Part shown: positions 7,012 through 64,000 of the stretch, piece after piece
Layout of the letters: each line of letters begins with the position of its first letter
Numbering within the stretch: the stretch's first letter is position 1
NCBI GenBank assembly: GCA_029265435.1
Contig: JAJUJH010000001.1
Span: 484 to 64,483, forward strand
From: Clostridiales bacterium
GTDB lineage: Bacteria; Bacillota; Clostridia; Christensenellales; SZUA-584
Direction: 5' to 3'
DNA: 64,000 nt
Notes under the pieces: generated by a model
What the model saw: the letters and a program-made list of their open reading frames with translations, nothing else
Told to the model about the DNA's origin: nothing
Databases searched by the model: none
Translations under genes and position numbers: made by a program

Positions 7012-7809
7012 TCACTCGGCCTTGATATACTGGCTGACGATCGTTTGGATTTCGCCCGACGCTTCAAGCTCCGCGATTGCCGAATTGATGAGCTTGAGCA
7101 AGGACGAGTTGTTTTTGTTTACCGCGATGGCGTAGCTGTCCGTTCTGTAAAGCGTATCGAGGAGTTCAACGCCTGTGTTTTCAAGATCCAGCTCGACGGC
7201 GGGGGCACGGTCTGTGACGACGGCATCCACGCCTCCGCTGATCAGCGCCTGAACCGCTTCCGCCCCGGTTGCAAACCGGGATATGGGCGCTTCTCCGAAC
7301 TGCTCGACGCAATAGGTTTCTCCCGCTGTGTTTTCCACAACGCCCAGCTTTTTACCCGTCAAATCGGCGGGCGATGAGATATCGGATTCGCTCGGCACGA
7401 TGACGGCCTGTTTTCCCACCACATAGGGGATTGTGAAGCTGACGGACGCAAGCCATGTTTCGCTGGCGGTCAATGCCGCCATGCCGATGTCGGCCGTTCC
7501 GTTCTGCACGGCGGGAACGATTTCGTCGAATCCCATTTGTCTGATTTCAAGCAAATAGCCTGTCTTTTCCGCGATTTTCCGGGCAATGTCAATGTCGATC
7601 CCGACGATATCCTGTTCGTTTAGGTACTCGTACGGCGCAAACGAGGCGTCCGTCGCCATTACAAGCTTCGGAGGGCCCGTTTCATCCGTTGTTTCGCCGT
7701 CTGCATCGCCGACTGCGCTTTCTTCAATATTAAGCGGCGTACACGCTCCGAACACAGCGGACAAACCGATCAAAAGCGCAAGCAGCACCGCGGTTTTTTT
7801 TGCTTTCAT
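7012..7809 (-). CDS. Polar amino-acid ABC transporter substrate-binding lipoprotein (second copy in the operon)
   Basis: Internal ATG at 7809 gives MKAKKTAVLLALLIGLSAVFGAC (lipobox). FAPYEY...GIDIDIARKIAEK...DIGMAALT is the family-3 SBP signature. Paralogous to the 9519..10376 gene. Confidence 0.85.
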   Translation of the reverse strand: MKAKKTAVLLALLIGLSAVFGACTPLNIEESAVGDADGETTDETGPPKLVMATDASFAPYEYLNEQDIVGIDIDIARKIAEKTGYLLEIRQMGFDEIVPAVQNGTADIGMAALTASETWLASVSFTIPYVVGKQAVIVPSESDISSPADLTGKKLGVVENTAGETYCVEQFGEAPISRFATGAEAVQALISGGVDAVVTDRAPAVELDLENTGVELLDTLYRTDSYAIAVNKNNSSLLKLINSAIAELEASGEIQTIVSQYIKAE

Positions 7810-7958
7810 TTGGGGGTCTCCCGTCGGTTGAATTTTGGACGTTTTTATTATATGACATTTCTTGAAACCGCTCAATAAAGGCCGGACGATTATTTGTGCG
7901 ATACCGGAATGAAAATAAAAAAGCCGCGCAGACATGGCGCGGCCGCAGATTCGTTGGA

Positions 7959-9518: not shown

Positions 9519-10376
9519 TTATTCGGCCTTGATATACTTGTCGATGATCTTCTGCACCTCGCCCGAAGCGATAAGCTCCTGAAGCGCGCCGTCGATCTTC
9601 TGAAGCAGATCGTTGTTGTCCTTCGATATGGCGATGGCGTAGTCTTCCAATGCGTATTCCGTTTCCAGTATCTTCAGCCCTTTGGTCTGCGCCACAAATA
9701 CCTTGGCGGGTTCGTTGTCGATCACGACCGCGTCGATCTTGCCCTGCGCGAGAGCCTGAATCGCGTCGGCGCCCTTGCTGTACCGTTCGATCTGGGCAAG
9801 CCCCGTATCAACGTAGTCCCATGTCACATAATAATCGCCCGTGGTGGCAAGCTGAGCGCCGATCGTTTTTCCTTTGAAATCGTCGGCGGATTTGATGTCG
9901 GAATCTTCACGGACGATGATGACCTGTTTGCCTGTCGCATACGATGTGCTGAAATTGACGGCTTGCAGACGCTCGTCGTTCACCGTCATGCCGGCCATGC
10001 CGATATCGACCTTGCCGCTTTGCACGGCGGGAATGATCGAATTGAATTCCATATCCTCGATTTTCAGCGTCATACCCAGTTTGTCGGCAATCAGCTTGGC
10101 AATATCGGCGTCGATGCCCACGATTTCGTCGCCTTCATAATATTCGTACGGCGCAAAAGTGGCGTTGGTGCCCAACGTCAATACATTGCCTTCAGTGCCG
10201 GCGGCTGCGGACTCGCTGGGCGCGGCAGATTCACTCGCTCCGGCGGATTCGCTTGCCGCAGAAGAAGCGGATTCGCTTGCGGACGGCTCGGTGGAAGTCT
10301 GCGGTGCGCAAGCCGCAAATGCGAATGCCGTGCACAATACGAGAACCAGCGATACGGCTGTTTTCAGTGCTTTCAT
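9519..10376 (-). CDS. Polar amino-acid ABC transporter substrate-binding lipoprotein (first gene of the operon)
   Basis: Lipobox FAFAAC, a Ser/Ala/Glu-rich linker, then FAPYEYYEGDEIVGIDADIAKLIADK...DIGMAGMT. Confidence 0.85.
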   Translation of the reverse strand: MKALKTAVSLVLVLCTAFAFAACAPQTSTEPSASESASSAASESAGASESAAPSESAAAGTEGNVLTLGTNATFAPYEYYEGDEIVGIDADIAKLIADKLGMTLKIEDMEFNSIIPAVQSGKVDIGMAGMTVNDERLQAVNFSTSYATGKQVIIVREDSDIKSADDFKGKTIGAQLATTGDYYVTWDYVDTGLAQIERYSKGADAIQALAQGKIDAVVIDNEPAKVFVAQTKGLKILETEYALEDYAIAISKDNNDLLQKIDGALQELIASGEVQKIIDKYIKAE

Positions 10377-26981: not shown

Positions 26982-27589
26982 AGCTACACAGCATCAATGA
27001 GGACATCTTTATCGCCGCGGGCGCTTTTCAAAAAACGCGCGGCGACATGGTATTCGGCGAGGGCAACGAAAACGCCGATATCATGCTGATCGGCGAAGCG
27101 CCGGGAGCCGAGGAGACGAGGCTTTCACGCCCGTTTGTGGGCAAGGCCGGCAAGAACCTCGACGCCTTTTTATCTGTGCTTGAGCTGAAGCGAGAAGACA
27201 TTTACATCACAAACGTGGTCAAATTCAGGCCGTACAAAACAAGCGGGAAGGGAACGATTTCCAACCGCCCGCCCGAAAAGGAAGAGCTGACCGCCATGTG
27301 CCCGTTTCTGATACGCGAGATTGAAGCCGTCGCTCCGCGCGTGGTGGTCACGCTTGGCAATGTGCCGCTCAAAGCGGTTTATGGCGCCGGCGCCACGATC
27401 GGAGAAAATCATGCCGTACCGGCGGCCGCCCGCGCGCTGTCGCACCGGTTTATGCTGTTTCCGCTTTACCATCCCGCGAGCATCATATATAACCGTGCGC
27501 TCAAAGCCGTGTACGACGAGGATCTGAAAAAGCTCAAAGCCTTTTTGAACGCAATCGGTGCGGCGGCCCGGCATAAATGCACGCTCTGA
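26978..27589 (+). CDS. Family-4-like UDG paralogue lacking three of the four Fe-S cysteines
   Basis: Internal ATG at 26978 overlaps the upstream stop (ATGA). [45 protein letters not shown]. The first 104 codons of track ORF 26666..27589 are an out-of-frame overlap of the first UDG. Confidence 0.75.
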
Positions 27590-27838
27590 CCTTGGACATG
27601 TTACAAAAATATTAAATTGATTCATAAAAGCGTAACAATACGAGCTCGCTTACTTTATCTGCCCTTTTCTTTCATTTTTGGGCTCAAACGAGATTTGCTT
27701 TTTTCCGTGCTTTTTTTGATAATGAATCCAACCATAACGGCTGATATTGGCAACGCCGATGATGCCGGAAACCAAGGCGCTCTTTTACCGAAGAATCAGG
27801 AACCTCCTAACCACGCCCCGTCATCGGGGACGCTCAAC

Positions 27839-27864
27839 CGGCGCGGCAAGCGCCGTTTTTCTTT
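27839..27864 (+). terminator. Orphan rho-independent terminator with no recognisable gene upstream
   Basis: CGGCGC-ggcaa-GCGCCG followed by TTTTTCTTT, 250 nt after the UDG stop. Confidence 0.5.
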
Positions 27865-27912
27865 GATCGGTTTGAAAAAAGGCGTCGCGTCCGGATAAAT
27901 ATGAACGACAAA

Positions 27913-28109
27913 AGCCCCCGGCGTTTGCCGAAGGCTCAGAGTGTCGATAAGTCAAGAATATCATTTGTGGGCAAGACGGGCTTCGCCCGCGCAGCCCACA
28001 CCTTGCGGTTTTACGCCGTTTCGAGCTTGCGAAGAACAAGCAAAACCGGAAAACTGTCGGAAACCGAAGGTTTTTCGACAAGTGAGCCCTCGGCGTTTGC
28101 CGAAGGCTC
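27913..28109 (+). repeat. Structured intergenic repeat, copy 1: 147-bp core (27938-28084) flanked by a 25-bp duplication of the tkt terminator hairpin
   Basis: The core aligns end to end with 40323-40464 and 47419-47569. Flanks are AGCCCCCGGCGTTTGCCGAAGGCTC (27913-27937) and AGCCCTCGGCGTTTGCCGAAGGCTC (28085-28109). Confidence 0.85.
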
Positions 28110-39087: not shown

Positions 39088-40287
39088 ATGCGGTCTTGTG
39101 AAATCGCAAAAGGCGTGTTTTGGACGGGAGCAACAGATCCCGCCGCACGCGGGCTCGGCGCTTTGCCGCACATGAAGCGGGGCGCGTCATATAACAGCTA
39201 TTTGGTATTAGGGAGCGAAAAGACCGCCGTTGTGGAGACGGTGGGAGAGCGTTTTTCAGACGAGCATATCGAGAAATTATCCGGCTTGTGTGATATATCG
39301 TCCATCGACTATATCATATGCAACCACTCGGAGCCCGACCATTCCGGCGGGCTCTTTAAGCTTCTCAAAGCCGCGAAAAATGCGTCGGTGGTTTGCACAA
39401 AGCCCGCGAGCGTTTTTCTCGGAAATATTTTAAACGAAAAGTTCGAGTGCAAAACCGTTGAGGACGGCGATACGATCGAGCTGGGCGGCAAGACGCTTCG
39501 GTTCATATCCGCGCCGTTTTTGATTTGGCCGGACACGATGTTCACATATATCATCGAAGACGCCGTGCTGCTGACGGGAAACGCGTTTGGGTTTCACTTT
39601 TCGGCGGAAAGCGATTTCGACGACATGACGCCGCTGACAGGCAGGATGATCGAGGCGCAGAAAGCGTATTTTGACGCGATGATGAGCCCTTTTAAAACGT
39701 ATGTGCTCGATGCGGTCAAAAAAACGCGCGCGCTGCATATCGACGTGATCGGTCCGTCGCACGGGCCGGTGCTGCGCAAAGACCCATGGGCTGCGGTTGA
39801 CCGCTATGAGAAATGGGCGTCGGATACGCTTGCCGTCAACAACCCCAAAAAGGTATATATCGGTTTTGCGTCATGCTATGGATATACATCAAAGCTCGCC
39901 GAACGCATAGCGCAGACGGTCAGGGAAGGGGGCTGCGACGCGGAGGTTGAAGATATATCCGCCGCCGATGCCGCACGATGCGCCGCCAAAATCCATTCGG
40001 CCGACGCTTTTGCGATCGGCTCGCCGACGATCAACCGCGATGCCTTAAAGCCCGTATGGGATGTGCTTTCGTCGCTGTCCGTAATGATCGTCAAAGGCAA
40101 AGCGGCGGCGGCTTTCGGTTCTTTCGGATGGAGCGGCGAATCCGTCAAATATCTGAGCGACCGGCTTCGGAATCTGGGCGCGGAAGTGGTCGGCACTTGC
40201 AGCGCCAAATTGAATCCGGACGACAAGGAACTGGCTGAAGCCGGAAAACTCGGCGAAGCGATATGCGCCGCGCTGGCTGAACGATAG
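39088..40287 (+). CDS. Flavodiiron protein (FprA-type O2/NO reductase: metallo-beta-lactamase-like plus flavodoxin domains)
   Basis: Di-iron motif HSEPDHSGG. C-terminal flavodoxin-like YIGFASCYGYTSKLAERIA...GSPTINRDA. Confidence 0.85.
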   Translation: MRSCEIAKGVFWTGATDPAARGLGALPHMKRGASYNSYLVLGSEKTAVVETVGERFSDEHIEKLSGLCDISSIDYIICNHSEPDHSGGLFKLLKAAKNASVVCTKPASVFLGNILNEKFECKTVEDGDTIELGGKTLRFISAPFLIWPDTMFTYIIEDAVLLTGNAFGFHFSAESDFDDMTPLTGRMIEAQKAYFDAMMSPFKTYVLDAVKKTRALHIDVIGPSHGPVLRKDPWAAVDRYEKWASDTLAVNNPKKVYIGFASCYGYTSKLAERIAQTVREGGCDAEVEDISAADAARCAAKIHSADAFAIGSPTINRDALKPVWDVLSSLSVMIVKGKAAAAFGSFGWSGESVKYLSDRLRNLGAEVVGTCSAKLNPDDKELAEAGKLGEAICAALAER

Positions 40288-40298
40288 CGGCTGCAACA

Positions 40299-40488
40299 AA
40301 AAAGAGCGGTTTGTCGCCGCTCCCAGACTGTCAATAAGGCTCAAAATATCATTTGCGGGCAAGACGGGCCTGGCCCGCGCAGCCCGCACCTTGCGCCGAT
40401 TCGAGCTTGCGAGGAACAAGCAAAGCCGGAAAACTGTTGTAAAACCGAAGGTTTTTCGACAAATAAAAAGAGCGGTTCGTCACCGCTC
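40299..40488 (+). repeat. Structured intergenic repeat, copy 2: 142-bp core (40323-40464) flanked by a 24-bp duplication of the fprA/rpsR bidirectional terminator hairpin
   Basis: Flanks are AAAAAGAGCGGTTTGTCGCCGCTC (40299-40322) and AAAAAGAGCGGTTCGTCACCGCTC (40465-40488), followed by TTTTGC. Confidence 0.85.
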
Positions 40489-40507: not shown

Positions 40508-40756
40508 TCAGTCCTGCGAATATGGAAGCAGCGCCATCATACGCGCACGCTTCACCGCCATCGCAAGATCTCTTTGATGCTTGGCGCAAACGCCGGATGT
40601 GCGTCTTGGCTGGATCTTGCCGCGCTCCGTCAGGAAACGCTTCAGCTTTGTGACATCTTTATAATCAATGCTCTTTGCTTTATCCGCACAAAACGCGCAG
40701 ACCTTGCGCCGGGGCTTGCCGCGCCGGATTTTCTTCTGCGACTTATCGTCATTCAT
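40508..40756 (-). CDS. rpsR: 30S ribosomal protein S18
   Basis: [62 protein letters not shown]. Confidence 0.95.
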
Positions 40757-42534: not shown

Positions 42535-43640
42535 GACGTAAAAAACCGTTCCTTGTCGTGGTAGCGAAGGTGAGAGGCGGGGAGCTCCGTATGGTTGAGC
42601 GGACTGTCCGTCAGCTCAAGCAGCCGCTCAAGAGGACGCGCGGCGCTGACGGCGTCGTAAGCGGTGCAGCACAGCGCGCCGGAAAGACTGGCAATGCGCG
42701 CGCAGTCCTCCAGCGAGAAGCCGCGTATCATCGCGGAAAGAAAACCGGCGATGGCGCTGTCGCCGCTGCCGAGCGCCGAGACGAAGCGTTCAACGCGGTA
42801 AGACGGCTGGAATATCTCCCTTGCCGAAAAACTGCCGCTCATGCCTGCGGATGTTTTGACATAAAGGCCATGAACGCCGCATTTGATAAGCGCGAGCCTT
42901 GAACCCATATCCAGGATACGGTTTGCGAGCGTCCGTATGCGCGAAAAATCCGGACGGCCGCCTGCGCAGATCCTCTCGAATTCGGGGCGGTCGAGCATGT
43001 ATAGCGCCTCGTCGATACTGGGCATAAACAAATCCACATGCGGCAGCGTTTTTTGAAGCACCGTTTTCCAATCCACTTTGCCCGATTCGCTTTGGGGGTC
43101 GGGCAGAGACATATCGAGCGACGTGACCGCCCCTTGAGCCTTGGCAGCGGAGAACAGGCGCACAAGCTCGGCGCCGTTGTTTTCGTACAGCCTCTTCATC
43201 ACGGTCGGATAACCGAAGTGAAAAAAGCCCGCTTCCCTTACACAGCGAAAATCGATATCATCCGCGCTGAATTCGTTGTTGTCAGCCGGATCGTGCAGTA
43301 TGATGCGGTCGATACCCGGCGGCGACAACACGACTGAATACGACGTGCGGCTGCCTTTCCGGCATGGCAGGCGGACGCCCGTTTCGCCTGCCGCGATGCC
43401 GGCAATGAGCTGACCGAAAGGATCGTCGCCGATTCGGGCAACGGGGTGCACACGCAGCCCCATTCTTGCCATCGCAAAGCCGGTATTTGAAACGGGGCCG
43501 CCGGCGGACACGGTGATGCCGTTCATATTGATGATCTTGCCGGGGCGGAAAAGCATGCCGATATCCTGAGCCTGGCCGGCTTCAAAGGCGGGACATACAT
43601 CCAGACAGATGTGTCCTGCCGCCACAATGTCGTATTTCAT
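42531..43640 (-). CDS. PfkB-family carbohydrate kinase
   Basis: N-terminal GHICLDV...GGPVSNTG and C-terminal ALGSGDSAIAGFL (the DTxGAGD-type motif variant). 369 aa. Confidence 0.8.
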   Translation of the reverse strand: MKYDIVAAGHICLDVCPAFEAGQAQDIGMLFRPGKIINMNGITVSAGGPVSNTGFAMARMGLRVHPVARIGDDPFGQLIAGIAAGETGVRLPCRKGSRTSYSVVLSPPGIDRIILHDPADNNEFSADDIDFRCVREAGFFHFGYPTVMKRLYENNGAELVRLFSAAKAQGAVTSLDMSLPDPQSESGKVDWKTVLQKTLPHVDLFMPSIDEALYMLDRPEFERICAGGRPDFSRIRTLANRILDMGSRLALIKCGVHGLYVKTSAGMSGSFSAREIFQPSYRVERFVSALGSGDSAIAGFLSAMIRGFSLEDCARIASLSGALCCTAYDAVSAARPLERLLELTDSPLNHTELPASHLRYHDKERFFTS

Positions 43641-43854
43641 GCGTTCACCTTTATGATTCGAAAATGATGATTATATTATAGCATACTTCGTTGTATTTTG
43701 GCTCAGCCGTCAGCGTTTTTGTGTTGCCGATGAATAATTATAAGCGTCGTCAAGAATCGACAAGTGTCGACAAAATCTTTTTTATTCATTTTGCGAAACA
43801 TGCAGGAATTTTACGATCTCGCTCAGAGTGCTGATATCTCTTTTTTTCACAGGA

Positions 43855-43875
43855 TGTGGACAACGATGTGGATAA
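43855..43875. promoter_or_regulatory. Two adjacent DnaA-box sequences (TGTGGACAA and TGTGGATAA)
   Basis: 43867-43875 is the exact reverse complement of TTATCCACA. 43855-43863 has one mismatch. The two boxes have the same orientation and are 3 bp apart, in an AT-rich intergenic region. Confidence 0.45.
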
Positions 43876-44087
43876 GTGGGATAGATATATACATTTTTCA
43901 GCGGCGTGTATACATTGGTATATCGGATTGAATATGAACAAGCATTTGAACCATATGATAAACGGCGCAAAAATATTCGGTCAAAAAGAGAAGATATTCA
44001 GAATTTCAATGCGGATCAAAAAAAGAGGATAACATTCATATTATTGGGAATCATAGGATCAGACTCTGTAAAGGCGGTACAAACGGA

Positions 44088-44351
44088 ATGAACGATACGC
44101 TGGATGCGATTAAAAGGCAGATGCGTTCAAGCAAGGGTGTGCGCGTGACGCTTAAAACGCGGTACGGAAGGCGCGGCGGCGTTGAAATGGGCGGGATCAT
44201 CGAAGGGCTTTACCCAGAGGTGTTCACAGTGCTTGTGAAAGAGCATGGGTATAAAAGGCGGTACTGCTTTTCCTATTCGGAAGTGCTTACCCATCACGTG
44301 GAGATAGACCCATGTCCAGAACCTCTCCTGTCTCTGCGTCCTGAAACATAA
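44088..44351 (+). CDS. veg: Veg (DUF1021) protein
   Basis: LDAIKRQMRSSKGVRVTLKTRYGRRGGVEMGGIIEGLYPEVFTVLV...YCFSYSEVLTHHVEI parallels B. subtilis Veg along its whole length. Confidence 0.8.
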   Translation: MNDTLDAIKRQMRSSKGVRVTLKTRYGRRGGVEMGGIIEGLYPEVFTVLVKEHGYKRRYCFSYSEVLTHHVEIDPCPEPLLSLRPET

Positions 44352-45078
44352 GCCAATATCCGTTCGCATCCGCAGCGGCGCTGCGCATATACGTGCCGAA
44401 GCCTTCAAGCCATATGGGGGGCGCCATTCCGTACTCCCCCGGTACCCCCAGCACCTTTGCAACCACGGTGCTGCCGCTGTAGATTTTGCCCGAAATATAG
44501 TGCCACCAGCCGGTGGGGCCGGGATATGAGATTTTAACCCATTCGCTGTTCGGAAAGGCGTACGGAAACGGGTTGATCTTATCTTGGCGGATCACATGCG
44601 GGCATGAATCGCAGACGCGCGGCTGTGCGGGCTGTTCGCGCTGTTCGGGCTGTTTGTCTGCAAGCGGCGGAGGCTCCTCGATTTTTAGCGGTTCTATCGG
44701 TATTTTGTTTTCGGTTTTGGGCAGCACATGCTTGAGCTTAAAATGTGCCGTTATCTCCTGCCAGTTTTGTCCGGAGGATTTGAGCAGGAACGCCATCGAC
44801 CGCGTATCCGCCACGGCGGCTCCCCGCACGGAATCCAGAGGCATACCGGAAAGCTCCGTATTGAGGCGTCCGTCCTTTATGTCGCCTGCGAAGTGGTCGT
44901 TGCCCTCGGAATCGAAGAGATACAGCGCGCACGAATCCGCAGGCTGCGAGGGCACAGTGAGGTCGATGAATAGGCCGTTATTCAGCGATTGAAGCTTGAG
45001 CACAGCCGCATGCTTCAGGTCTTTGAGCGTGCCGTTGTCGCTTTTTAGCATCATTACAGACCGTTTAATGCTTTCCAT
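44287..45078 (-). CDS. Hypothetical protein (263 aa)
   Basis: GAGGGAGGAAG RBS before the ATG at 45078 (MESIKRSVMMLKSDNG...). Pro/Gln-rich linker, C-terminal WWHYISGKIY...GYWLMFQDAETGEVL. I recognise no family. Confidence 0.55.
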   Translation of the reverse strand: MESIKRSVMMLKSDNGTLKDLKHAAVLKLQSLNNGLFIDLTVPSQPADSCALYLFDSEGNDHFAGDIKDGRLNTELSGMPLDSVRGAAVADTRSMAFLLKSSGQNWQEITAHFKLKHVLPKTENKIPIEPLKIEEPPPLADKQPEQREQPAQPRVCDSCPHVIRQDKINPFPYAFPNSEWVKISYPGPTGWWHYISGKIYSGSTVVAKVLGVPGEYGMAPPIWLEGFGTYMRSAAADANGYWLMFQDAETGEVLDMGLSPRDG

Positions 45079-45339
45079 ATTTCCCTCGCTTCCTCCCTCA
45101 TATATATATGGGCGAAGCCGCGGGAAAATGAAGGTTTTATAAATTGATATGAATGTATAAAAAAGGCCAAACGAAACGACATAAATTAACATTAATAGAA
45201 ATTGACGCAAAACTGCCCGATGCTAAAATGAAGCTAGGAAGGAAAGCATTTTGAAACGGTTGTTCAATGTTGGGGAAATATCTGAGGGAGGGAGTGTGTT
45301 GTGTGGCAAGACCGCCTTAAACGAAAAGGACGAAGGTTC

Positions 45340-45442
45340 GGCAGCGGTGTTTACCGACGAGAAAAGCAAACCCGAGCGAAAGCCGGGGACGCAAAGCCAT
45401 GAAGTCTAAAGCGCGATAGCGCCATGACGGTTCGGCCGCCTC
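45340..45442 (+). promoter_or_regulatory. c-di-GMP-I (GEMM-I) riboswitch aptamer
   Basis: AAAAGCAAACCCGAGCGAAAGCCGGGGACGCAAAGCCATGAAGTCTAAAGCGCGATAGCGCCATGACGGTTCGGCCGCC contains the conserved GCAAAC, GAAA tetraloop, GGGACGCAAAGCC and distal helix pattern, as in Vc2. Confidence 0.8.
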
Positions 45443-45466
45443 ATTTCGGAAGCGGCTTTTTATTTT
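45435..45466 (+). terminator. Riboswitch expression-platform terminator
   Basis: GCCGCCTC...GGAAGCGGC followed by TTTTTATTTT. Its 5' arm overlaps the 3' end of the aptamer. The adhesin RBS and ATG follow at 45481-45499. Confidence 0.7.
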
Positions 45467-45496
45467 GCTGTCAAATAAGAAAGGAAGATAATAGTA

Positions 45497-47383
45497 ATGA
45501 AGAAAAGAATAACCTCGCTGCTCATTGCCCTGATGTTGCTCATCGCATTGATCCCGACGAAGGCTTTTGCGGAGGATGCGCAGGGACCGGAGACGGCGGA
45601 TGACGCGGTCATCACATCGGCTGAGCCAGAACAACCGTCGAATGCCGGATCGGATGCTCTGCAAGCGCCGGCGGCAGATGTTGCTGCGCAGTCTCCCAAT
45701 CTGCCGAAGCCCGAGATCACGATCGAAACGTATTGCGGCGGTACGAAAATCGACTATGAAGGCGGGAAGGTCGCCTGCATATGGTCAAGTATTTACAACA
45801 AATGGAAATTAGTTTCGGATGCAAAAGATGGTTTCAATTTTGACGGATTTTTTGGCGACGTTTATAAATATTATGGTAAATATTACGTCGATGCTGCGGA
45901 AGGAAAGAAAGTCACGGCAAAATTCGTTTGCTGCAATGAGGCTTTCAGAAAGCTGAAAATCAATATCGACGGAGAAGGTTCGGTGAGTACGGATCCCGGC
46001 GCGCTGTTTACGATTGGCGATGATCGTTATTATTATCCTGGCACGCGTGTCACGCTGACCGGGACGGCGGCGCATGGCTGGTGTTTCAAGAAATTCACCG
46101 GAGTCATCTGCAATAATAAAGTGGAGTTGTGGTTTAACAAGTCGGTCACCGCCCATTTTGAAAAATGCACCTACAATGTGGTCTTCAATCCGGGCATTCA
46201 TGGGATGCTGAACGGACAAACAAATCCTGTGACCGTTCCGACGCTGTTCGGAGAGAAGCCGGAAGAGCCTGCGGTAACCCCCTTTGACGGATACGGCTTC
46301 GCGGGCTGGTCTCCCGATATCGTTCCGGCGGACGAGGCACTCGAATATACGGCGCTGTACGACTGCATACCTTACAATATTGACTATGACTATGACGGCG
46401 GCAGTGCGGACAATCCCGATACGTACACTGTTGAGAGCGGCGAAATTACGCTCCGCAATCCTGTCAGGACCGGTTATCTTTTTGCGGGATGGAGCGGCAC
46501 GGGCATTGAAGACGGAACGATGGAGGTTGTCATTCCCGCCGGTTCGACGGGAAACAGAGAGTATAAGGCGCTGTGGACGCCCGTCACCTACTTTGTGACA
46601 TACAACAAGAACGGCGGCAGCGGCGGCATGACGGCGAACAGCACCCATGTCTATGACGTGGAATCCAAGCTGACCAAAAACGGTTATGATAAACAGGGAC
46701 ACGACTTCATCGGCTGGTCGGCTTCGCCTGATGCGGCAGCGGCGGATTATACGGATGAGATGTCCGTTATCAATCTGAGCAGCACCAACGGCGACGTGGT
46801 GGAGCTGTTTGCGGTTTGGAAACTCAAGAAGTTTGATGTCTCATTTTATCAGCAGGACGGCACCACACAGATCGGCGCCACTCAAACGGTGAACTGGAAC
46901 GCCGCGGCCGCGCTTGAAACGGCGCCCGCTGTGACCGGATACACGTTTGACAAGTGGGTGCTCACCGGAGATGACGATACGGAGACGACAAGCCTGACCA
47001 GCGTTAAAGAGAATATCAAGGCTGTGGCTGCGTATGAGAAAAACAAGTACACGGTCACGTTCGTGGACGAGCAGAACAAAGTGATCGCCACGCAGACCGT
47101 GGCTTACGGCGATGCCGCGACGGCTCCCGCACCGCCCGCAAAGTCCGGCTATACGTTTGCCGGATGGGATAAGCCGTACAGCCTAATCACGGGCGATCTG
47201 ACCGTGACGGCGCTGTATAAACGGATTGAGTCAAGCGGCGAGTCTGTTCCGGATACGGGAGACGCGGGTTCGCAGCCTTTCCCGTGGCTGTGGATCGGCA
47301 TAGCCGCTTTGCTTATCGGCGCAATCGCGGCAATAGCGGCGGTTCAATCAAAACGCGGTAAAAAGACCGGCGGCGCCGTTTAA
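45497..47383 (+). CDS. Cell-surface protein with five Listeria-Bacteroides-type (Flg_new) repeats and an LPXTG-like sorting signal
   Basis: Signal peptide. Repeat ends GYGFAGWSPD, GYLFAGWSGTG, GHDFIGWSAS, GYTFDKWVL and GYTFAGWDKP. C-terminus VPDTGD, a hydrophobic segment, then KRGKK. Confidence 0.8.
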   Translation: MKKRITSLLIALMLLIALIPTKAFAEDAQGPETADDAVITSAEPEQPSNAGSDALQAPAADVAAQSPNLPKPEITIETYCGGTKIDYEGGKVACIWSSIYNKWKLVSDAKDGFNFDGFFGDVYKYYGKYYVDAAEGKKVTAKFVCCNEAFRKLKINIDGEGSVSTDPGALFTIGDDRYYYPGTRVTLTGTAAHGWCFKKFTGVICNNKVELWFNKSVTAHFEKCTYNVVFNPGIHGMLNGQTNPVTVPTLFGEKPEEPAVTPFDGYGFAGWSPDIVPADEALEYTALYDCIPYNIDYDYDGGSADNPDTYTVESGEITLRNPVRTGYLFAGWSGTGIEDGTMEVVIPAGSTGNREYKALWTPVTYFVTYNKNGGSGGMTANSTHVYDVESKLTKNGYDKQGHDFIGWSASPDAAAADYTDEMSVINLSSTNGDVVELFAVWKLKKFDVSFYQQDGTTQIGATQTVNWNAAAALETAPAVTGYTFDKWVLTGDDDTETTSLTSVKENIKAVAAYEKNKYTVTFVDEQNKVIATQTVAYGDAATAPAPPAKSGYTFAGWDKPYSLITGDLTVTALYKRIESSGESVPDTGDAGSQPFPWLWIGIAALLIGAIAAIAAVQSKRGKKTGGAV

Positions 47384-47394
47384 CGGAATCGATA

Positions 47395-47593
47395 AGCAGG
47401 CCTGAAAAGCGGTTTGCTCAGAGTGTCGATAAAGCTAAAGATAATATTTGTGGGCAAGACGGGCTTTGCCCGCGCCGCCCACACCTTGCGGTTTTGCGCC
47501 GTTTCGAGCTTGCGAGGAACAAGCAAAACCGGAAAACTGTCGTAAAACCGAAGGCTTTACGACAAACAGAGCAGGCCTGAAAAGCGGCCTGCT
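47395..47593 (+). repeat. Structured intergenic repeat, copy 3: 151-bp core (47419-47569) flanked by a 24-bp duplication of the adhesin terminator hairpin
   Basis: Flanks are AGCAGGCCTGAAAAGCGGTTTGCT (47395-47418) and AGCAGGCCTGAAAAGCGGCCTGCT (47570-47593), followed by TTTTTGT. Confidence 0.85.
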
Positions 47594-47608: not shown

Positions 47609-48511
47609 TCAGGTGCGGGTGATCACGCGGTTGCGTCCCAGATTTTTTGCGTCATACAGCGCGGCGTCGGCTGCGGCGAGCAGTTCGTCCACGGAGTTTT
47701 TTTCGATGCTGCTGGCGACGCCGATGCTGACGGATATGGAAAGCGCGCCCGACCGTGTCATCAGCCGGGTTTCGGCGATCTGTGTGCGGTAACGCTCAAA
47801 GCGCGCGCTCATTTCTTCTTCGGAAGAGGCTGTGGTGATGATCAGGAATTCTTCGCCGCCGATGCGGCCGATCGAATCCGATTTGCCGGTGATCTGCTCA
47901 AGGATTCTCGACAGCTTACATAAAACATCGTCGCCGGTCTGATGGCCGTACGTATCGTTGATGTTCTTGAAATGGTCGATATCGCAGATGCCCGCGCACA
48001 GCACCGAATCTCCGATGCCCATATGGAAAAACTGATGGTCGAGTATTTCCAATATGGCTCTGCGGTTGTAAAGACCGGTAAGCGGGTCGTGCGTCGCCTG
48101 ATAATTGAGCTGTTCGTTGGTCTTAAAAAGCGCGTCCTGAAGCTCCACCATGCGCTTGCCGACCTGAATCCTGGCTCGCAGCTCGTTTGGGTCAAAAGGT
48201 TTGATCAGATAATCGTTGGCGCCCGCGTCGAGCCCCGCGATGATATCTTTTGTTTCGCTTTTGCCGGTCAGCATGATGATATAAGGCGGACGCTCGGTTT
48301 TGGCTTCGCGGACTTTTCGAATCAGTTCAACCCCGTCGAGCTTGGGCATGATCCAGTCGAGTATCGCGATTTGCGGTGCGCCGGGCTTGCTGAGCTCAAC
48401 CCAGGCCTGCAAGCCGTCGGATGTTTCGACCACATCGTAGCCGTATTTTTTGAGCGAGCCGGCAAGAATCATGCGGCAGGTTGCACTGTCATCGGCAATC
48501 AATATTCGCAT
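47609..48511 (-). CDS. Response-regulator receiver plus GGDEF diguanylate cyclase
   Basis: REC domain (MRILIADD..., ILDWIMPKLDG, K at LIKPF) and a GGDEF domain with an intact GGEEF. The residues at the usual RxxD I-site position read KSDS. Confidence 0.9.
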   Translation of the reverse strand: MRILIADDSATCRMILAGSLKKYGYDVVETSDGLQAWVELSKPGAPQIAILDWIMPKLDGVELIRKVREAKTERPPYIIMLTGKSETKDIIAGLDAGANDYLIKPFDPNELRARIQVGKRMVELQDALFKTNEQLNYQATHDPLTGLYNRRAILEILDHQFFHMGIGDSVLCAGICDIDHFKNINDTYGHQTGDDVLCKLSRILEQITGKSDSIGRIGGEEFLIITTASSEEEMSARFERYRTQIAETRLMTRSGALSISVSIGVASSIEKNSVDELLAAADAALYDAKNLGRNRVITRT

Positions 48512-59658: not shown

Positions 59659-60165
59659 AATAATCCTCCTTTTACTACGGTTTGCATGGGATTCATTTGC
59701 GAAAAGTTTCAGCTTTTGTCTCCCGATAACCGCATTTAATTGAATTGTATCATATGACTATACTTCCGCCCCGTTTTTTTGTGCAATATGGTAATGCTGT
59801 TGAGATTGAAAATCCGCTGTTTTGCAGACAGTTTCAGCATTAGGACTTTGCATTTCTTTTATCTTCCGGGACGGAGGTTTTGTCCTTGTCTATCCGGTTT
59901 CCGATGGCGTTAAATGTGATTCCGTGATGCAGGCATTCCTGTATTTTAATACAGCCATTTCAAGTATGATGTTTGTTTTATGTTTGTCGCGGCCTCCTCC
60001 TAGAAATTTCCCATGCTTAATTCTACAGGATGACGCTTCAATCCTGCATCTTTATCCGCTATGGATATACTACGTGCATTAACTTCATTTAACGATTTAA
60101 TTAAATTAAGAAAAACATGCTTGAATTATACATATATTGAGCGTATTATGGGACAAAAAGGGTGA

Positions 60166-60423
60166 TATGATTATTCGCAAGCGTTAAAACAACGGGAATG
60201 TGCCCCTGCGACACAAAATCTTGATTTTCTTGATAAGCTTGAAGGCGATCACATTTTAGGCTTGATAAGAGAGATTTTTAACGGATCAGTAGTATGGGTG
60301 ATTAAATTCACATTAAGAACAAGTTGGGGTGAAGTCGATAGCATTTTTAATCCACTGGTTAATATGAGAATTGATGCTATGACAGGTGAAATAATTGAAG
60401 CAATCTCAACTGACGGCGATTGA
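60166..60423 (+). pseudogene. Start-less open frame whose end resembles a PepSY-like domain (possible gene remnant)
   Basis: Own translation: ...DHILGLIREIFNGSVVWVIKFTLRTSWGEVDSIFNPLVNMRIDAMTGEIIEAISTDGD*. There is no ATG/GTG/TTG in frame after the upstream stop at 60163-60165. Confidence 0.25.
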
Positions 60424-60578
60424 TAAGGGTTAAGGTTAAAGTATAGGCAATAGGATTTCAAGCGCTTTGCAACATTGATGAGCACTTTTCACTGTTAAAT
60501 TTGCTGGAAAATGTATGGTTTTTATATTTAAGCATATCCTTAAAAAGCTATCTATCGGGATTAACGGAAAAGGAGCGT

Positions 60579-61559
60579 ATGATGAAAAGAAGTAATTTTA
60601 AAAAATATGTTTTATCTTTTAGTGGTGTAGCTATTATTTTAGTAGGCTTGTTAATAGTGTTACCAATATTAATAAGAGACCAGCAGGAATTATCTTTGCA
60701 GAATGAGGGTGGATCAAAGCAGCCGATCGATGAAGAAATGGCAGCAGGAGGAGATATCAATGAAGAAGCGGCAGTAGGAGAAGATATCTGCGGAACAATA
60801 CCGCTGACAAATCTGATCATAGAGACTGACTATAGAAAGCCCTCTTCACTTTATATTGGTAAACAGTACTCAGTTAGGTTTTCGGAGGAAGATAAAGAGA
60901 CGATAATTAAAAATCTAACGGAGCATGGTTGGAATAATGTTACTGGTAAACTTACGTATTTTGACTCAAAGAATCAGTCTATGTTGAATTTCTTCCAACC
61001 GGAGACATATGATGATTCGAATGACGGGAAAAAGGATGAAAGCAACTTTGCTGCAACAGAGAAGCATATTCAGTTTGCACAAAAATTTCTTGAAGACAGC
61101 GGTATAGTCAAACTACTGCAAGGATATAACATTGAGCTGTCCAACAAGCCATCTGATGAAACGTTCGCAACTGTTTTTTATGCTTATTTTGAAGGGTTTA
61201 GGACAGAAACCTATCTTAGGGTACAATTCTCTCCAGATGGAACATTAGAAGATGCGCAGTTATATGCAGTAGAACTTGAAAAAGCCAATAATACTCATAA
61301 TGTTTTATCTCTTGAAGAGGCCATAAAAAATGCTTTTTATTCCAGCGAAAGTACAAACATTGGTGATGACGAATATTTGATAACAGGTGTTAATGTAATA
61401 TATAAAAGTGGATTCCCGTTTTATGAGCTGAAATTGAAAAGCAACAAGAACAATATGGTTATGGACGGATACGCACTTGCTGTAGATTATAACGAAATAA
61501 AGGACGATAAAGAATTAAGTATCGCATTTGAAAGCTTAAAGCAAAAAAGCATATGGTAA
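60579..61559 (+). CDS. Hypothetical signal-anchored extracytoplasmic protein (326 aa), low-GC gene
   Basis: AAAGGAG RBS plus ATG at 60579 (MMKRSNFKKYVLSFSGVAIILVGLLIVLPILI). Acidic linker, Lys/Asn/Glu-rich body. Codon usage differs clearly from the flanking genes. Confidence 0.6.
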   Translation: MMKRSNFKKYVLSFSGVAIILVGLLIVLPILIRDQQELSLQNEGGSKQPIDEEMAAGGDINEEAAVGEDICGTIPLTNLIIETDYRKPSSLYIGKQYSVRFSEEDKETIIKNLTEHGWNNVTGKLTYFDSKNQSMLNFFQPETYDDSNDGKKDESNFAATEKHIQFAQKFLEDSGIVKLLQGYNIELSNKPSDETFATVFYAYFEGFRTETYLRVQFSPDGTLEDAQLYAVELEKANNTHNVLSLEEAIKNAFYSSESTNIGDDEYLITGVNVIYKSGFPFYELKLKSNKNNMVMDGYALAVDYNEIKDDKELSIAFESLKQKSIW

Positions 61560-61572
61560 ATAATTAAAAATG

Positions 61573-61613
61573 ATGCAAGAAAGTGCTTAATTAACCGATG
61601 CGCTTTCTTGCAT
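61573..61613 (+). terminator. 14-bp stem hairpin after the 326-aa gene (weak T-tract), abutting the transposase fragment
   Basis: ATGCAAGAAAGTGC (61573-61586) pairs with GCGCTTTCTTGCAT (61600-61613), followed by TTATAAAAG. Confidence 0.45.
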
Positions 61614-61619
61614 TTATAA

Positions 61620-62060
61620 AAGCAAGTTGCGCGGTTATATAATGAATCGGAAGACCTGCCAAAGATCGCAGAGCGTTTTAGAGAGCGAACAGGCCATTAT
61701 CCGAAGCGGCTGTTGGCGGATAAGATATACCGAACGAGGGATAACCTGTCCTACTGCAAAGAGCATGGTATCAGGCTGTCAGGGCCGCCGCTGGGACGTC
61801 CCAGAAAAGATGAGCCGCGGGATAGAAAGAGCGAATACCGAGACAACTGTGAACGCAATGCCATAGAGGGCTTCTTCGGGACAGGAAAGCGCTCGTATGG
61901 GCTTAATGTCATTATGGCCAAGCTGCAAAATACCTCTGTGACGGTGATCATGGTAGGGATTATGGCCATGAACCTCAAGCGGCTGGTTTTACTGCAATTT
62001 TTGCGTCTGCTTCACAGATGGCCGGAGATGAAGCCAAGACTTTTCCTTTCCGCTGTTTAA
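61620..62060 (+). pseudogene. 5'-truncated DDE transposase gene (IS4/IS5-superfamily-like C-terminal part)
   Basis: The frame is open from 61620: ...RLLADKIYRTRDNLSYCKEHGIRLSGPPLGRP...YRDNCERNAIEGFFGTGKRSYGLNVIMAKL...MAMNLKRL. This has the typical D..(Y)..R...E......K catalytic C-terminal region. There is no N-terminal half and no inverted repeats were seen. Confidence 0.6.
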
Positions 62061-62989
62061 GATGGTTGCGGAGGAAGGCCTAATTAATAAGACAGATTCA
62101 AGATGAAAAGAGGGTTTTATTGCGCTTGAAAGCAAAGAATACTCCTTTTATGATGAATTTTAGGCGGTAAAACACTATGCTTACAATTATATTACATGTC
62201 GTTAATATCTTACTTACTTTAGTCGTAATAATTGCACTGTTTTTCTTGATTCGTTTTTTGAATTCCAAATTAGAAAAATAGGTTGATAGAGTATACGTGA
62301 AGGAGTCATCATAACTTTTCAGGCGAGGTGGTAGATCGCCATTTTAAAAACTTCCGTTCAGGTGCTTCCATCTTACACCCTCTCGGTGGTTTACATAAAA
62401 TTCGGGATGGTCTCTCGGCTTTAGCCATAGCTGTCAGCGGCCTTAAGGAATCAATTCTTTTTTCTTAATTCTTGCATAGTCTTTTTGATGAAGAAAATAC
62501 TTAGATATATACATGCAAAAACGGCAATAACCGTTATTGAATATAAGAGTATGCGCAAAACCGTTATATCTAATTCATTTAAGATAACTAACGGATATAG
62601 CGACTCTGTAGGTATAATTTCTGATGCTGACATTCAAAACCACCGCCTATTCAGTTTCAGTAAGCGACCATACAGTATTAGTGCGCCATTCATGAATATC
62701 CCTCAAAGTTCTCTCAAAAGTTATTATCTTTTTCATTTTGCACCTTAAAGATTTATTATTTCATTAACGAACAATATGCCAACTCGATATCTAACACCTA
62801 TCCGATTTATATCATTAATAGAAATATAAAGCAAATTTGATATCGGCAAGAAAAACAAAGATATACCACGGTACTGACATATATCATTGTGTATTTAAGC
62901 AAAAACCACACATAAACCCGAAATATGAAAATAAAGCAATAAGCTGTCACTGAAAAAACCTTATGCCGGTTGGACTGCGAAGTGCAAAC

Positions 62990-63125
62990 ATTTAGTGAAA
63001 AACCATGTAAACATGGGACTTTCACGCAAAGCGGTGTTTGCATACATCGAAGGATTTTACAATGCGCGCAGGGCTCAAAAGAGGTCAGGCTGACTCACTC
63101 ACAAGCAGCGGCTGAAAATGCTGGA
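62990..63125 (+). pseudogene. Remnant of an rve-type (IS3/IS30/IS481-like) transposase C-terminus, interrupted by a stop
   Basis: Own translation: ...SRKAVFAYIEGFYNARRAQKRSG*, then in another frame LTHSQAAAEN. This resembles the YIE-FYN-R-R-H--LG--(S/T)P motif at the end of integrase-core transposases. Confidence 0.35.
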
Positions 63126-63424
63126 TGGAAGGGTATATTAAACGAACGGCTTAGCAAATTGTCCGAAAAAGTATTGACTTCACCTGCTCAAAAAAGATGA
63201 TCCCTATTGTTGGAGCTGGATTTATAATAGAACTTGAAATGGATGGCATAAAATCGGGCATAGCTTTCGATGAATGTTAAAATAAAATCACAGCCGGAAG
63301 GGGGATGATGGATGATTGGGCGGATAGAGGGTAATTCGGGCAATTTCAAAACACAAATTACGGCAGTTCGACACATTGACCGTTAATGCTCCATATGATA
63401 TGCTTACTCCGTATTGAATATGAA

Positions 63425-63630
63425 CCATCGGGTGCCTTCGGCATAATGGAAAGCGTCGCTTTTCAGACTGCCAATGAAGGATAATAGGGAAAACGGTGAA
63501 ACGCCGTTGCAGCCCCCGCTACCGTATGGCCGACCGTCAGACATTCCGCCACTGAAGCAAACCGCTTTGGGAAGGCGTCTCAAACGGGATGAAGCCAAGC
63601 CGGTAAACCTGCCCGATGCGTAAGAGTCAG
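63425..63630 (+). promoter_or_regulatory. Cobalamin (B12) riboswitch
   Basis: AATAGGGAAAACGGTGAAACGCCGTTGCAGCCCCCGCTACCGTA, GCCACTG, GGGAAGGC, and a B12-box-like GAAGCCAAGCCGGTAAACCTGCC. Confidence 0.8.
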
Positions 63631-63676
63631 ATTTCTTCGGAGGGAAGGATGCAGACGGCCGTTATCATGCGGATTC

Positions 63677-63713
63677 ACGCCTTTAGCATCAGCGCTTCAG
63701 GCGTTTTTATTTT
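63677..63713 (+). terminator. Terminator of the B12 riboswitch expression platform
   Basis: ACGCCT...AGGCGT followed by TTTTTATTTT, about 70 nt before the downstream ATG. Confidence 0.6.
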
Positions 63714-63785
63714 CCGCCCGTTGCGTTTATGCCGGATATCCTCACCTCCGCAGGATAAAGGATCATACAACGGAGGAAAGTAAAG

Positions 63786-64000
63786 ATGAAAAAGACGGTG
63801 TATTTGTTTTTGGCGCTTGCGGCGGCGGCATGCCTGCTTTGCGGCTGTGCGCCGACCGGCGATGCGCAGACGGCTTCGGCGGCTGCGGCGACGCCGGTTC
63901 CCAAAGACATTTTGGACGACAATGTGGATGCGATGGGCAACGAAGTGACGGCGTCGGCGATTCCGGAGGAGGAACTGAGGATTGTTTCGACGGCGCCGAG
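63786..64000 (+). CDS. ABC-transporter periplasmic binding lipoprotein, BtuF/siderophore-type (5' part; runs off the window end)
   Basis: Own translation: MKKTVYLFLALAAAACLLCGCAPTGD...EEELRIVSTAP (lipobox LLCGC; RIVS-AP is typical of the start of class-III SBPs). GGAGGAAAG RBS. Sits behind the B12 riboswitch. Confidence 0.6.
   Translation, partial: MKKTVYLFLALAAAACLLCGCAPTGDAQTASAAAATPVPKDILDDNVDAMGNEVTASAIPEEELRIVSTAP

Follow-up and report, generated by a model that had tools for sequence, protein, structure and literature searches.

A family of short non-coding repeats, probably MITE-type transposons, that occupies and duplicates terminator hairpins in a Clostridiales bacterium

The window, that is, the whole stretch of 64 000 nucleotides of Clostridiales DNA analyzed here, contains three copies of a repeat that is probably a MITE-type non-autonomous DNA transposon, ~145 bp long and non-coding, which inserts into terminator hairpins and duplicates them. 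The unusual feature of this repeat is the duplication of an entire terminator hairpin, 24–25 bp in length, which is of moderate interest for specialists in mobile DNA. A single double substitution in a palindromic repeat, the feature on which a sequence-only reading of this DNA had focused, is no evidence for a functional RNA and matters little.

A dispersed repeat bounded by duplicated hairpins

All three copies in the window are on the plus strand and are 141–151 nt long (nhmmer profile, E-values of 1e-47 to 1e-52), and the reading of the region, the repeat finder and the nhmmer profile agree on the same three copies (Table 1). Two additional copies, numbered 4 and 5, are found on a 13-kb contig (L005) that belongs to the species of the window, and the proteins encoded in this contig are also present in the NCBI assembly of the window. 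The element has no coding capacity: a search with concatenated six-frame peptides yielded only P0001, a spurious ORF call over the element, and it was through this single protein that the 13-kb contig was reached. Copies 4 and 5 are ~80–85% identical to copies 1–3, their left ends are degraded and their left duplications are gone, and only copies 1–3 carry the duplication described below. Copy 5, too, is located between convergent genes, with a terminator hairpin adjoining CGACAAGCTG at its right end; compared with copies 1 and 3, copy 2 lacks 8 nt internally. In all, five dispersed copies are present within ~77 kb of one species; all five are co-oriented within their own contigs, and the plus strand of the window has a positive GC skew.

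Table 1. Coordinates of the repeat copies, their flanking duplications and neighboring features (window positions, except for copies 4 and 5)
Feature	Coordinates	Strand	Description
Copy 1	27937–28084	+	148 nt, nhmmer
Copy 2	40324–40464	+	141 nt, nhmmer; CAGACTGTCAATAA ... TTTTTCGACAAAT
Copy 3	47419–47569	+	151 nt, nhmmer
Copy 4	L005:8867–9016	co-oriented with copy 5	13-kb contig, JGI sample 3300001682
Copy 5	L005:6640–6779	co-oriented with copy 4	13-kb contig, JGI sample 3300001682
Copy 1, left target-site duplication	27913–27936		AGCCCCCGGCGTTTGCCGAAGGCT; on the minus strand, followed by TTTTGT
Copy 1, right target-site duplication	28085–28108		AGCCCTCGGCGTTTGCCGAAGGCT; no T-tract on either strand
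Copy 2, left target-site duplication	40299–40323	+	AAAAAGAGCGGTTTGTCGCCGCTC (to 40322) plus one extra C at 40323; T-tract lost
Copy 2, right target-site duplication	40465–40488, with T-run to 40492		Surviving bidirectional fprA/rpsR terminator
Copy 3, left target-site duplication	47395–47418		AGCAGGCCTGAAAAGCGGTTTGCT
Copy 3, right target-site duplication	47570–47593, with TTTTTT to 47599	+	AGCAGGCCTGAAAAGCGGCCTGCT; terminator of the surface-protein gene
Copy 1, stem-loop	27966–28000	+	TGTGGGC-aaga-CGGGC-ttc-GCCCG-cgca-GCCCACA
Copy 2, stem-loop	40354–40388	+	GC-rich; outer stem TGCGGGC/GCCCGCA, inner CGGGC-ctg-GCCCG
Copy 3, stem-loop	47449–47483	+	Same stem-loop as in copy 1
fprA (flavodiiron protein)	39088–40287	+	Upstream neighbor of copy 2; stop codon 40285–40287
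rpsR (ribosomal protein S18)	40508–40756	−	Convergent neighbor of copy 2
c-di-GMP-I riboswitch	45355–45443	+	Rfam; directly upstream of the surface-protein gene
Surface-protein gene, Listeria-Bacteroides-repeat (Flg_new)	45497–47383	+	Neighbor of copy 3
REC-GGDEF diguanylate cyclase/response-regulator gene	47609–48511	−	Convergent neighbor of copy 3

Each of copies 1–3 is bounded by direct repeats, namely, AGCCC(C/T)CGGCGTTTGCCGAAGGCT at copy 1, AAAAAGAGCGGTT(T/C)GTC(G/A)CCGCTC at copy 2 and AGCAGGCCTGAAAAGCGG(TT/CC)TGCT at copy 3, with one, two and two differences, respectively, between the left and the right repeat, all of which are transitions. The duplication is 24 bp long (25 bp with one ambiguous base) in the three intact copies and involves three unrelated sequences; the repeat finder recovered these duplications independently, as the pairs 27913/28085, 40294/40460 and 47395/47570. 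The probability of a chance match between 24-mers with at most three mismatches is ~2e-10 per locus, and such a match is observed three times, so that the repeat family with its flanking duplications is far beyond chance.

The duplicated sequences are GC-rich, terminator-like hairpins that are different at each locus. The left end of the element always joins the 3′ base of the stem, ahead of any T-run, and the other junction lies 24–25 bp upstream, so that the whole hairpin is duplicated by repair; within each pair, only one hairpin keeps the T-tract for a given direction. The claim of the sequence-only reading that the element lies inside a duplicated terminator hairpin is borne out by the near-identical flanking repeats, but the arrangement goes further than that reading concluded: hairpin, element, hairpin is a target-site duplication and, therefore, a signature of transposition.

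The presence of a hairpin at each end of every intact copy could, in principle, be accounted for if the hairpins were part of the element itself, a hairpin-core-hairpin cassette, or if they had arisen through a local duplication unrelated to transposition. This explanation is extremely improbable, and the fact that each locus has its own hairpin sequence effectively refutes it: the hairpins are near-identical within a locus but unrelated between the loci, their outer flanks bear the A- and T-tracts of the terminators of the neighboring genes, and the 3′ part of the right hairpin of copy 2, CCGCTCTTTTG, is conserved beside rpsR in a relative without the element. This hairpin tail is also the only part of the locus that can be aligned in a comparison aimed at an empty site, which yielded none among the nearest relatives, 74–76% identical in FprA and with rearranged loci. 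A search for tandem 24-bp hairpins, the footprints of excision, found none.

Copies 1 and 2 are present both in the window and in a sister strain, represented by the JGI contig SAHD_10001294 (L004/L010), and copy 3 is shared up to the end of this contig. The sister contig stops inside copy 3 (positions 1–115 of L004 correspond to positions 47419–47533 of the window), which is the kind of break expected at a multicopy repeat and suggests that the genome contains many more copies. No copy of the element is present in the syntenic loci (~11–21 kb each) fetched from GCA_023408075.1 and GCA_023399095.1, the relatives with 74–76% FprA identity, which are Christensenellales-like, judging from the names of the neighboring database matches. 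Under both gathering and E-value thresholds, Rfam yields no match to the element (the top hit, at E = 0.34, scores far below the gathering cutoff), and the only Rfam matches elsewhere in the window are cobalamin and c-di-GMP-I riboswitches. The scan of genome and metagenome contig collections with GAGCTTGCGANGAACAAGCAAA gave only chance coding matches, the element was not found in two scans of a viral contig collection, blastn against plasmids and phages with copy 1 as the query gave nothing meaningful, and no Pfam families were found around the window copies. The element is best described as a lineage-restricted MITE family without a prior description.

Ends of the element and its class

The ends of the element are imperfect terminal inverted repeats, 5′-CAGAGTGTCGATAA ... 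TT(T)TCGACAAGCTG-3′, such that, over 14 bp, CAGAGTGTCGATAA matches the reverse complement of TTTCGACAAGCTG in 11 of the 14 positions. The left end reads CAGAG or CAGAC followed by TGTCGATAA, and the right end reads TT(T)TCGACAA, after which come GTG, AT or ACAG, with copies 4 and 5 terminating in GCTG, so that the tips of the element are CAG...CTG. Both ends are conserved in copies 1–3, and the right end is also conserved in copies 4 and 5. A motif resembling TGTCGAnAA is present at each end, where TGTCGA and TCGACA start 5 nt inside the respective tips, and a third such motif, TGTCG(G/T)AAA, is located ~30 nt inside the right end.

The element thus combines the features that define MITEs, namely, a size under ~300 bp, the lack of coding potential, terminal inverted repeats, locus-specific target duplications and dispersed copies, and its location between convergent genes fits this class as well (cf. 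PMC3049150, PMC10969869). The window contains no transposase, cas or other mobile-element gene, and the fetched loci contain no transposase; neither further sites resembling the terminal repeats nor a full-length IS was found in the window and the fetched loci.

Several other classes of small elements were considered and rejected. PATEs, which derive from IS200/IS605, have no target duplication, insert 3′ of a fixed tetra- or pentanucleotide, and have subterminal hairpins rather than terminal inverted repeats. The repeat described here has 24–25-bp duplications, and although GCT(C) precedes copies 1–3, these bases belong to each of the duplicated stems. For REP/BIME, group IIC introns, retron ncRNAs and integron attC sites, the size, the genes or the defining features are missing.

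Insertion sites and transcription of the neighboring genes

All three window copies are inserted between convergent genes; copy 1 is located between a UDG-family gene on the plus strand and tkt on the minus strand. Copy 3 occupies the terminator between the riboswitch-controlled surface-protein gene and the REC-GGDEF gene. The fprA and rpsR genes that flank copy 2 are adjacent in the species of the window but are separated by a GntR regulator and an ABC-transporter operon in GCA_023408075.1 and GCA_023399095.1 (L006 11204–14163; L007 11207–15257), so that the terminator shared by the two genes is a lineage-specific arrangement.

The left hairpin of copy 2 starts at 40299, 11 nt past the fprA stop codon, and is followed by CCAGAC, without a T-run, whereas the right hairpin keeps the A-run, the stem and TTTT and is terminator-like on both strands; on both points, the sequence-only reading was correct. 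Given that no T-run follows the left hairpin, fprA transcripts should read through the element, plausibly as far as the right hairpin and its T-run. On the rpsR side, a terminator-like site is kept: read on the minus strand, the right hairpin leads into TTTTTATTTGT.

At copy 1, the minus-strand T-tract lies to the left of the left hairpin, and because this hairpin is followed by TTTTGT on that strand, it should be the working terminator of tkt. The tkt transcript would then read through copy 1 and represent the antisense strand of the element. With copy 1 antisense in the 3′ UTR of tkt, the orientation of the element relative to transcription is not conserved: transcripts arriving from one side would traverse the element before terminating, in the sense direction for fprA and the surface-protein gene, and in the antisense direction for tkt. 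No promoter-like sites were found in or beside the window copies.

The region downstream of the UDG-family gene (27590–27912) is either a small gene or non-coding. It includes an ORF of 93 amino acids (27617–27898) that has no Pfam match, is also called in the JGI contig, and overlaps a clean terminator-like hairpin with a T-run at 27839–27860. A 12-mer of the element, TTTGTGGGCAAG, recurs within the UDG-family gene, at 27134–27145, 800 bp before copy 1; across all the 12-mers of the element, chance alone would produce about one such match.

The double change in copy 2 and selection on structure

The sequence-only reading described an internal stem-loop common to the window copies, which is indeed found in all three, along with a matched pair of changes in copy 2, T to C at 40356 and A to G at 40386, and variation of the triloop (ttc, ctg and ttt in copies 1, 2 and 3, respectively); all these bases are confirmed. 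The double change replaces a T-A pair of the outer stem with C-G and is common to both strains, and therefore predates the strain split. The compensatory change is real but offers poor evidence that an RNA structure is under selection. It could result from two transitions that occurred by chance; or the pair could have been fixed, prior to insertion, in the mobile source lineage, in which hairpin integrity may matter for transposition; or one arm of the quasi-palindrome could have been corrected against the other via template switching, a known mechanism that operates at the level of DNA. None of these three origins needs an RNA function in the host.

The alternative, in which the repeat is a structured RNA or ssDNA maintained by selection, that is, a 3′-UTR module or a small RNA under purifying selection with a true compensatory change in copy 2, is unlikely. 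It would be compatible not only with the replacement of one Watson-Crick pair by another in the outer stem, present in both strains, but also with two more double changes in other predicted helices, which makes three pairs, one each in copies 2, 3 and 4. The covariation analyses that bear on these pairs include only five copies and have little statistical power. For these five copies, RNAalifold predicts five helices with 39 pairs, with an unfavorable covariation term of +1.8 kcal/mol. The three double changes are a modest excess over the mean of 1.1 in shuffled columns: three are reached in 33 of the 500 shuffles, and the covariation score in 29 of the 500. Random placement of the 35 observed substitutions (24 transitions and 11 transversions) produces at least one compensated double change within the 13-pair stem-loop in 14% of the trials (P = 0.14) and anywhere in the fold in 35% of the trials. 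The compensatory pair in copy 2 is, therefore, not beyond chance.

Other features of the copies point in the same direction. Helix 3 loses one arm through the 8-nt deletion in copy 2, and another 8-nt deletion, in copy 5, falls in helix 5, destroying these helices. Copy 1 folds better than shuffled sequences, as would be expected of a structured RNA (z = −2.1 for the plus strand), but the opposite strand folds equally well or better, with z = −3.9 for the minus strand of copy 1, as expected of palindromic DNA. In the outer stem, every single-sided change leaves a G.U-compatible pair on the plus strand, so that all cells of this stem are pairable on that strand when three G.U pairs are counted; across both stems, four of the five single-sided changes are G.U-compatible, which is not significant. 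There may be a weak constraint on the outer-stem hairpin alone.

The comparison between the strains involves a sister contig from a metagenome assembly, a kind of data in which repeats are error-prone. The two strains are 99.4% identical over 20.5 kb, with a divergence of 0.52% in coding DNA and 1.85% in all intergenic DNA. For the elements, copies 1 and 2 combined, the divergence is 3.1% (9 of the 289 positions), compared with 1.7% for the other intergenic DNA (p = 0.10); the difference between the elements and coding DNA is significant (p = 4e-5). In the sister strain, the outer stem of copy 1 has lost 1 nt from its 3′ arm, and this copy also has 1 nt inserted and a G replaced by C in the right terminal repeat. 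In copy 2, two substitutions, C to T and G to T, fall in the 5′ arm of the inner stem, the opposite arm being unchanged, and a C in the right terminal repeat is replaced by A. Thus, both copies that can be compared between the strains, 1 and 2, contain stem-breaking changes. The hairpin copies at each locus differ by 4–12%, compared with the intergenic divergence of 1.85% between the strains, so that the insertions are old. The resident copies are decaying, with drift no slower than that of neutral intergenic DNA.

The sequence-only reading had taken the pattern in the stem-loop as an argument for selection on structure rather than a decaying insertion. This interpretation is not supported: the covariation is non-significant among the five copies, helices are disrupted by deletions, the changes that break stems in the sister strain are uncompensated, in elements that diverge at least as much as other intergenic DNA, and copy 1 is antisense to tkt, the source of the only transcript that clearly enters this copy. 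The placement of copies 2 and 3 where read-through from plus-strand genes is likely would suit a structured RNA, but with no promoter-like sites in or beside the copies, no match in Rfam, and no counterpart of the element in the fetched syntenic loci of the relatives, the overall picture is against it. Supported covariation combined with purifying selection, the mark of a new conserved structured RNA, was not found among the five copies.

Within the same contig pair, the divergence between the strains climbs from ~0.4% to 2.4% in a 4-kb block (43465–47533 of the window, compared with 1–4066 of L004) that runs from the PfkB-side genes to the surface-protein gene, which suggests a recombination tract or a diversifying surface locus.

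Comparison with known mobile elements and a possible mechanism

In its general features, the repeat resembles the bacterial MITEs and small repeats, such as RUP, BOX and SPRITE of S. pneumoniae, the Correia elements and bcr1, which are also ~100–200 bp long, non-coding and multicopy, with terminal inverted repeats and target duplications, and fold strongly if transcribed. MITEs are enriched between convergent genes (PMC3049150), and both small repeats and MITEs are co-transcribed into 3′ UTRs (PMC3049150, PMC10969869). The main difference is in the target duplications, which are 2–9 bp long in these elements but here encompass a whole terminator hairpin of 24–25 bp. Furthermore, SPRITE itself resembles a terminator, whereas the present element inserts into one, and it matched nothing in the Rfam, plasmid, phage, viral, genome and metagenome collections.

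The only comparably long duplications with a fixed range that were found among the known elements, and hence the closest precedent, are those of the IS1202 group. The target duplications of this group, the IS1202 subgroup of the IS1202 family, are 16–28 bp according to PMC10132070, a range that includes the 24–25 bp seen in all three intact copies here, and 27–28 bp according to the preprint 10.1101/2022.12.17.520857. The subgroup employs a DDE transposase related to TnsB, IS3 and IS481, and the IS1202 family also shares with the present element additional repeats inside the ends, which in that family bind the transposase, and the occurrence in Gram-positive bacteria. However, the ends of the IS1202 family are 5′-TGT...ACA-3′ rather than CAG...CTG, and the members with long duplications reportedly lack target specificity, in contrast to the present element, all three intact copies of which occupy terminator hairpins. 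Given these differences, and with no IS1202-type transposase in the window or the fetched loci to examine, the element is not classified as an IS1202 derivative.

Long direct target repeats, from tens to hundreds of base pairs, are also produced by the IS1634/IS1549-type members of the IS4 family, but these vary in length, in contrast to the 24–25 bp at all three loci here. Intergenic hairpins and terminators serve as safe insertion sites for group IIC introns, for IS1397 and ISKpn1, and for IS110/IS1111 elements (REP, attC). None of these duplicates a whole hairpin: group IIC introns, ~2-kb ribozymes, integrate on the downstream side of the hairpin and leave it in a single copy, and the duplications produced by the REP-targeting IS are 0–4 bp.

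At the three loci, the element inserted into GC-rich hairpins of intrinsic terminators that lie between converging genes. A transposase supplied in trans would have cut the palindromic target with a 24–25-bp stagger, as in the IS1202 subgroup, and repair duplicated the whole hairpin, yielding hairpin, element, hairpin. A more ambitious proposal, which can be put forward only tentatively, is that the repeat represents a new transposon lineage whose enzyme recognizes intrinsic-terminator hairpins, cuts with a fixed stagger of 24–25 bp and so regenerates the hairpin on each side. Such a hairpin-specific enzyme may have diverged from IS1202-like DDE transposases and gained a new target specificity, or it may be an unrelated integrase.

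It is very unlikely that the repeat is mobile DNA moved by a non-DDE integrase, either one similar to Cas1 or a casposase or one acting at the base of an extruded cruciform. The analogy comes from the duplicated unit: Cas1-Cas2 duplicates the repeat in full, with palindromic or cruciform sites as its preferred off-targets, and like Cas1-Cas2 and casposons, which attack both borders of a palindromic unit of ~25–35 bp in a staggered manner and leave it duplicated around the insert, the present element is flanked by a hairpin palindrome of CRISPR-repeat-like length (24–25 bp) that is duplicated whole. The co-orientation of the copies and the positive GC skew of the plus strand also hint at a strand-specific process. 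The resemblance is an analogy only. In the present case, there are no cas genes and no leader, and the inserted DNA is a defined repeat bounded by inverted ends. For casposons, the duplications measure 14–15 bp, and no casposon genes are present in the window; the terminal inverted repeats and the repeated subterminal motifs are typical of the ends of DDE transposons. Moreover, the duplication at copy 2 is off-center on the palindrome, taking in the 5′ A-run but not the 3′ T-run, so that cutting with a fixed stagger of ~24 bp is a better fit than cruciform-base cleavage.

If confirmed, insertion by a MITE of this kind would add to the very few elements whose target duplications are long and confined to a fixed range, and would bring terminator targeting into this set. 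A lineage specific to terminator hairpins would, if real, follow a ‘safe-haven' strategy and, in addition, would divide a shared bidirectional terminator in two. Through such insertions, one bidirectional terminator common to two genes can become two separate hairpins, and 3′ UTRs can be extended; for annotators, tandem near-identical terminators ~170 bp apart mark an insertion.

Other features of the window

The last 4 kb of the window (60001–64000) have a GC content of 40%, compared with ~54% elsewhere in the window, and may be horizontally acquired DNA. This low-GC segment encompasses the cobalamin riboswitch (63413–63630, plus strand) and, at 60726–60788, a 30-nt tandem repeat (2.1 copies) within an ORF. 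On the minus strand, at 7012–7935 and 9519–10376, there are two paralogs encoding SBP_bac_3-type solute-binding proteins, ~2.5 kb apart, which the repeat finder flagged as stretches with 77–79% identity.
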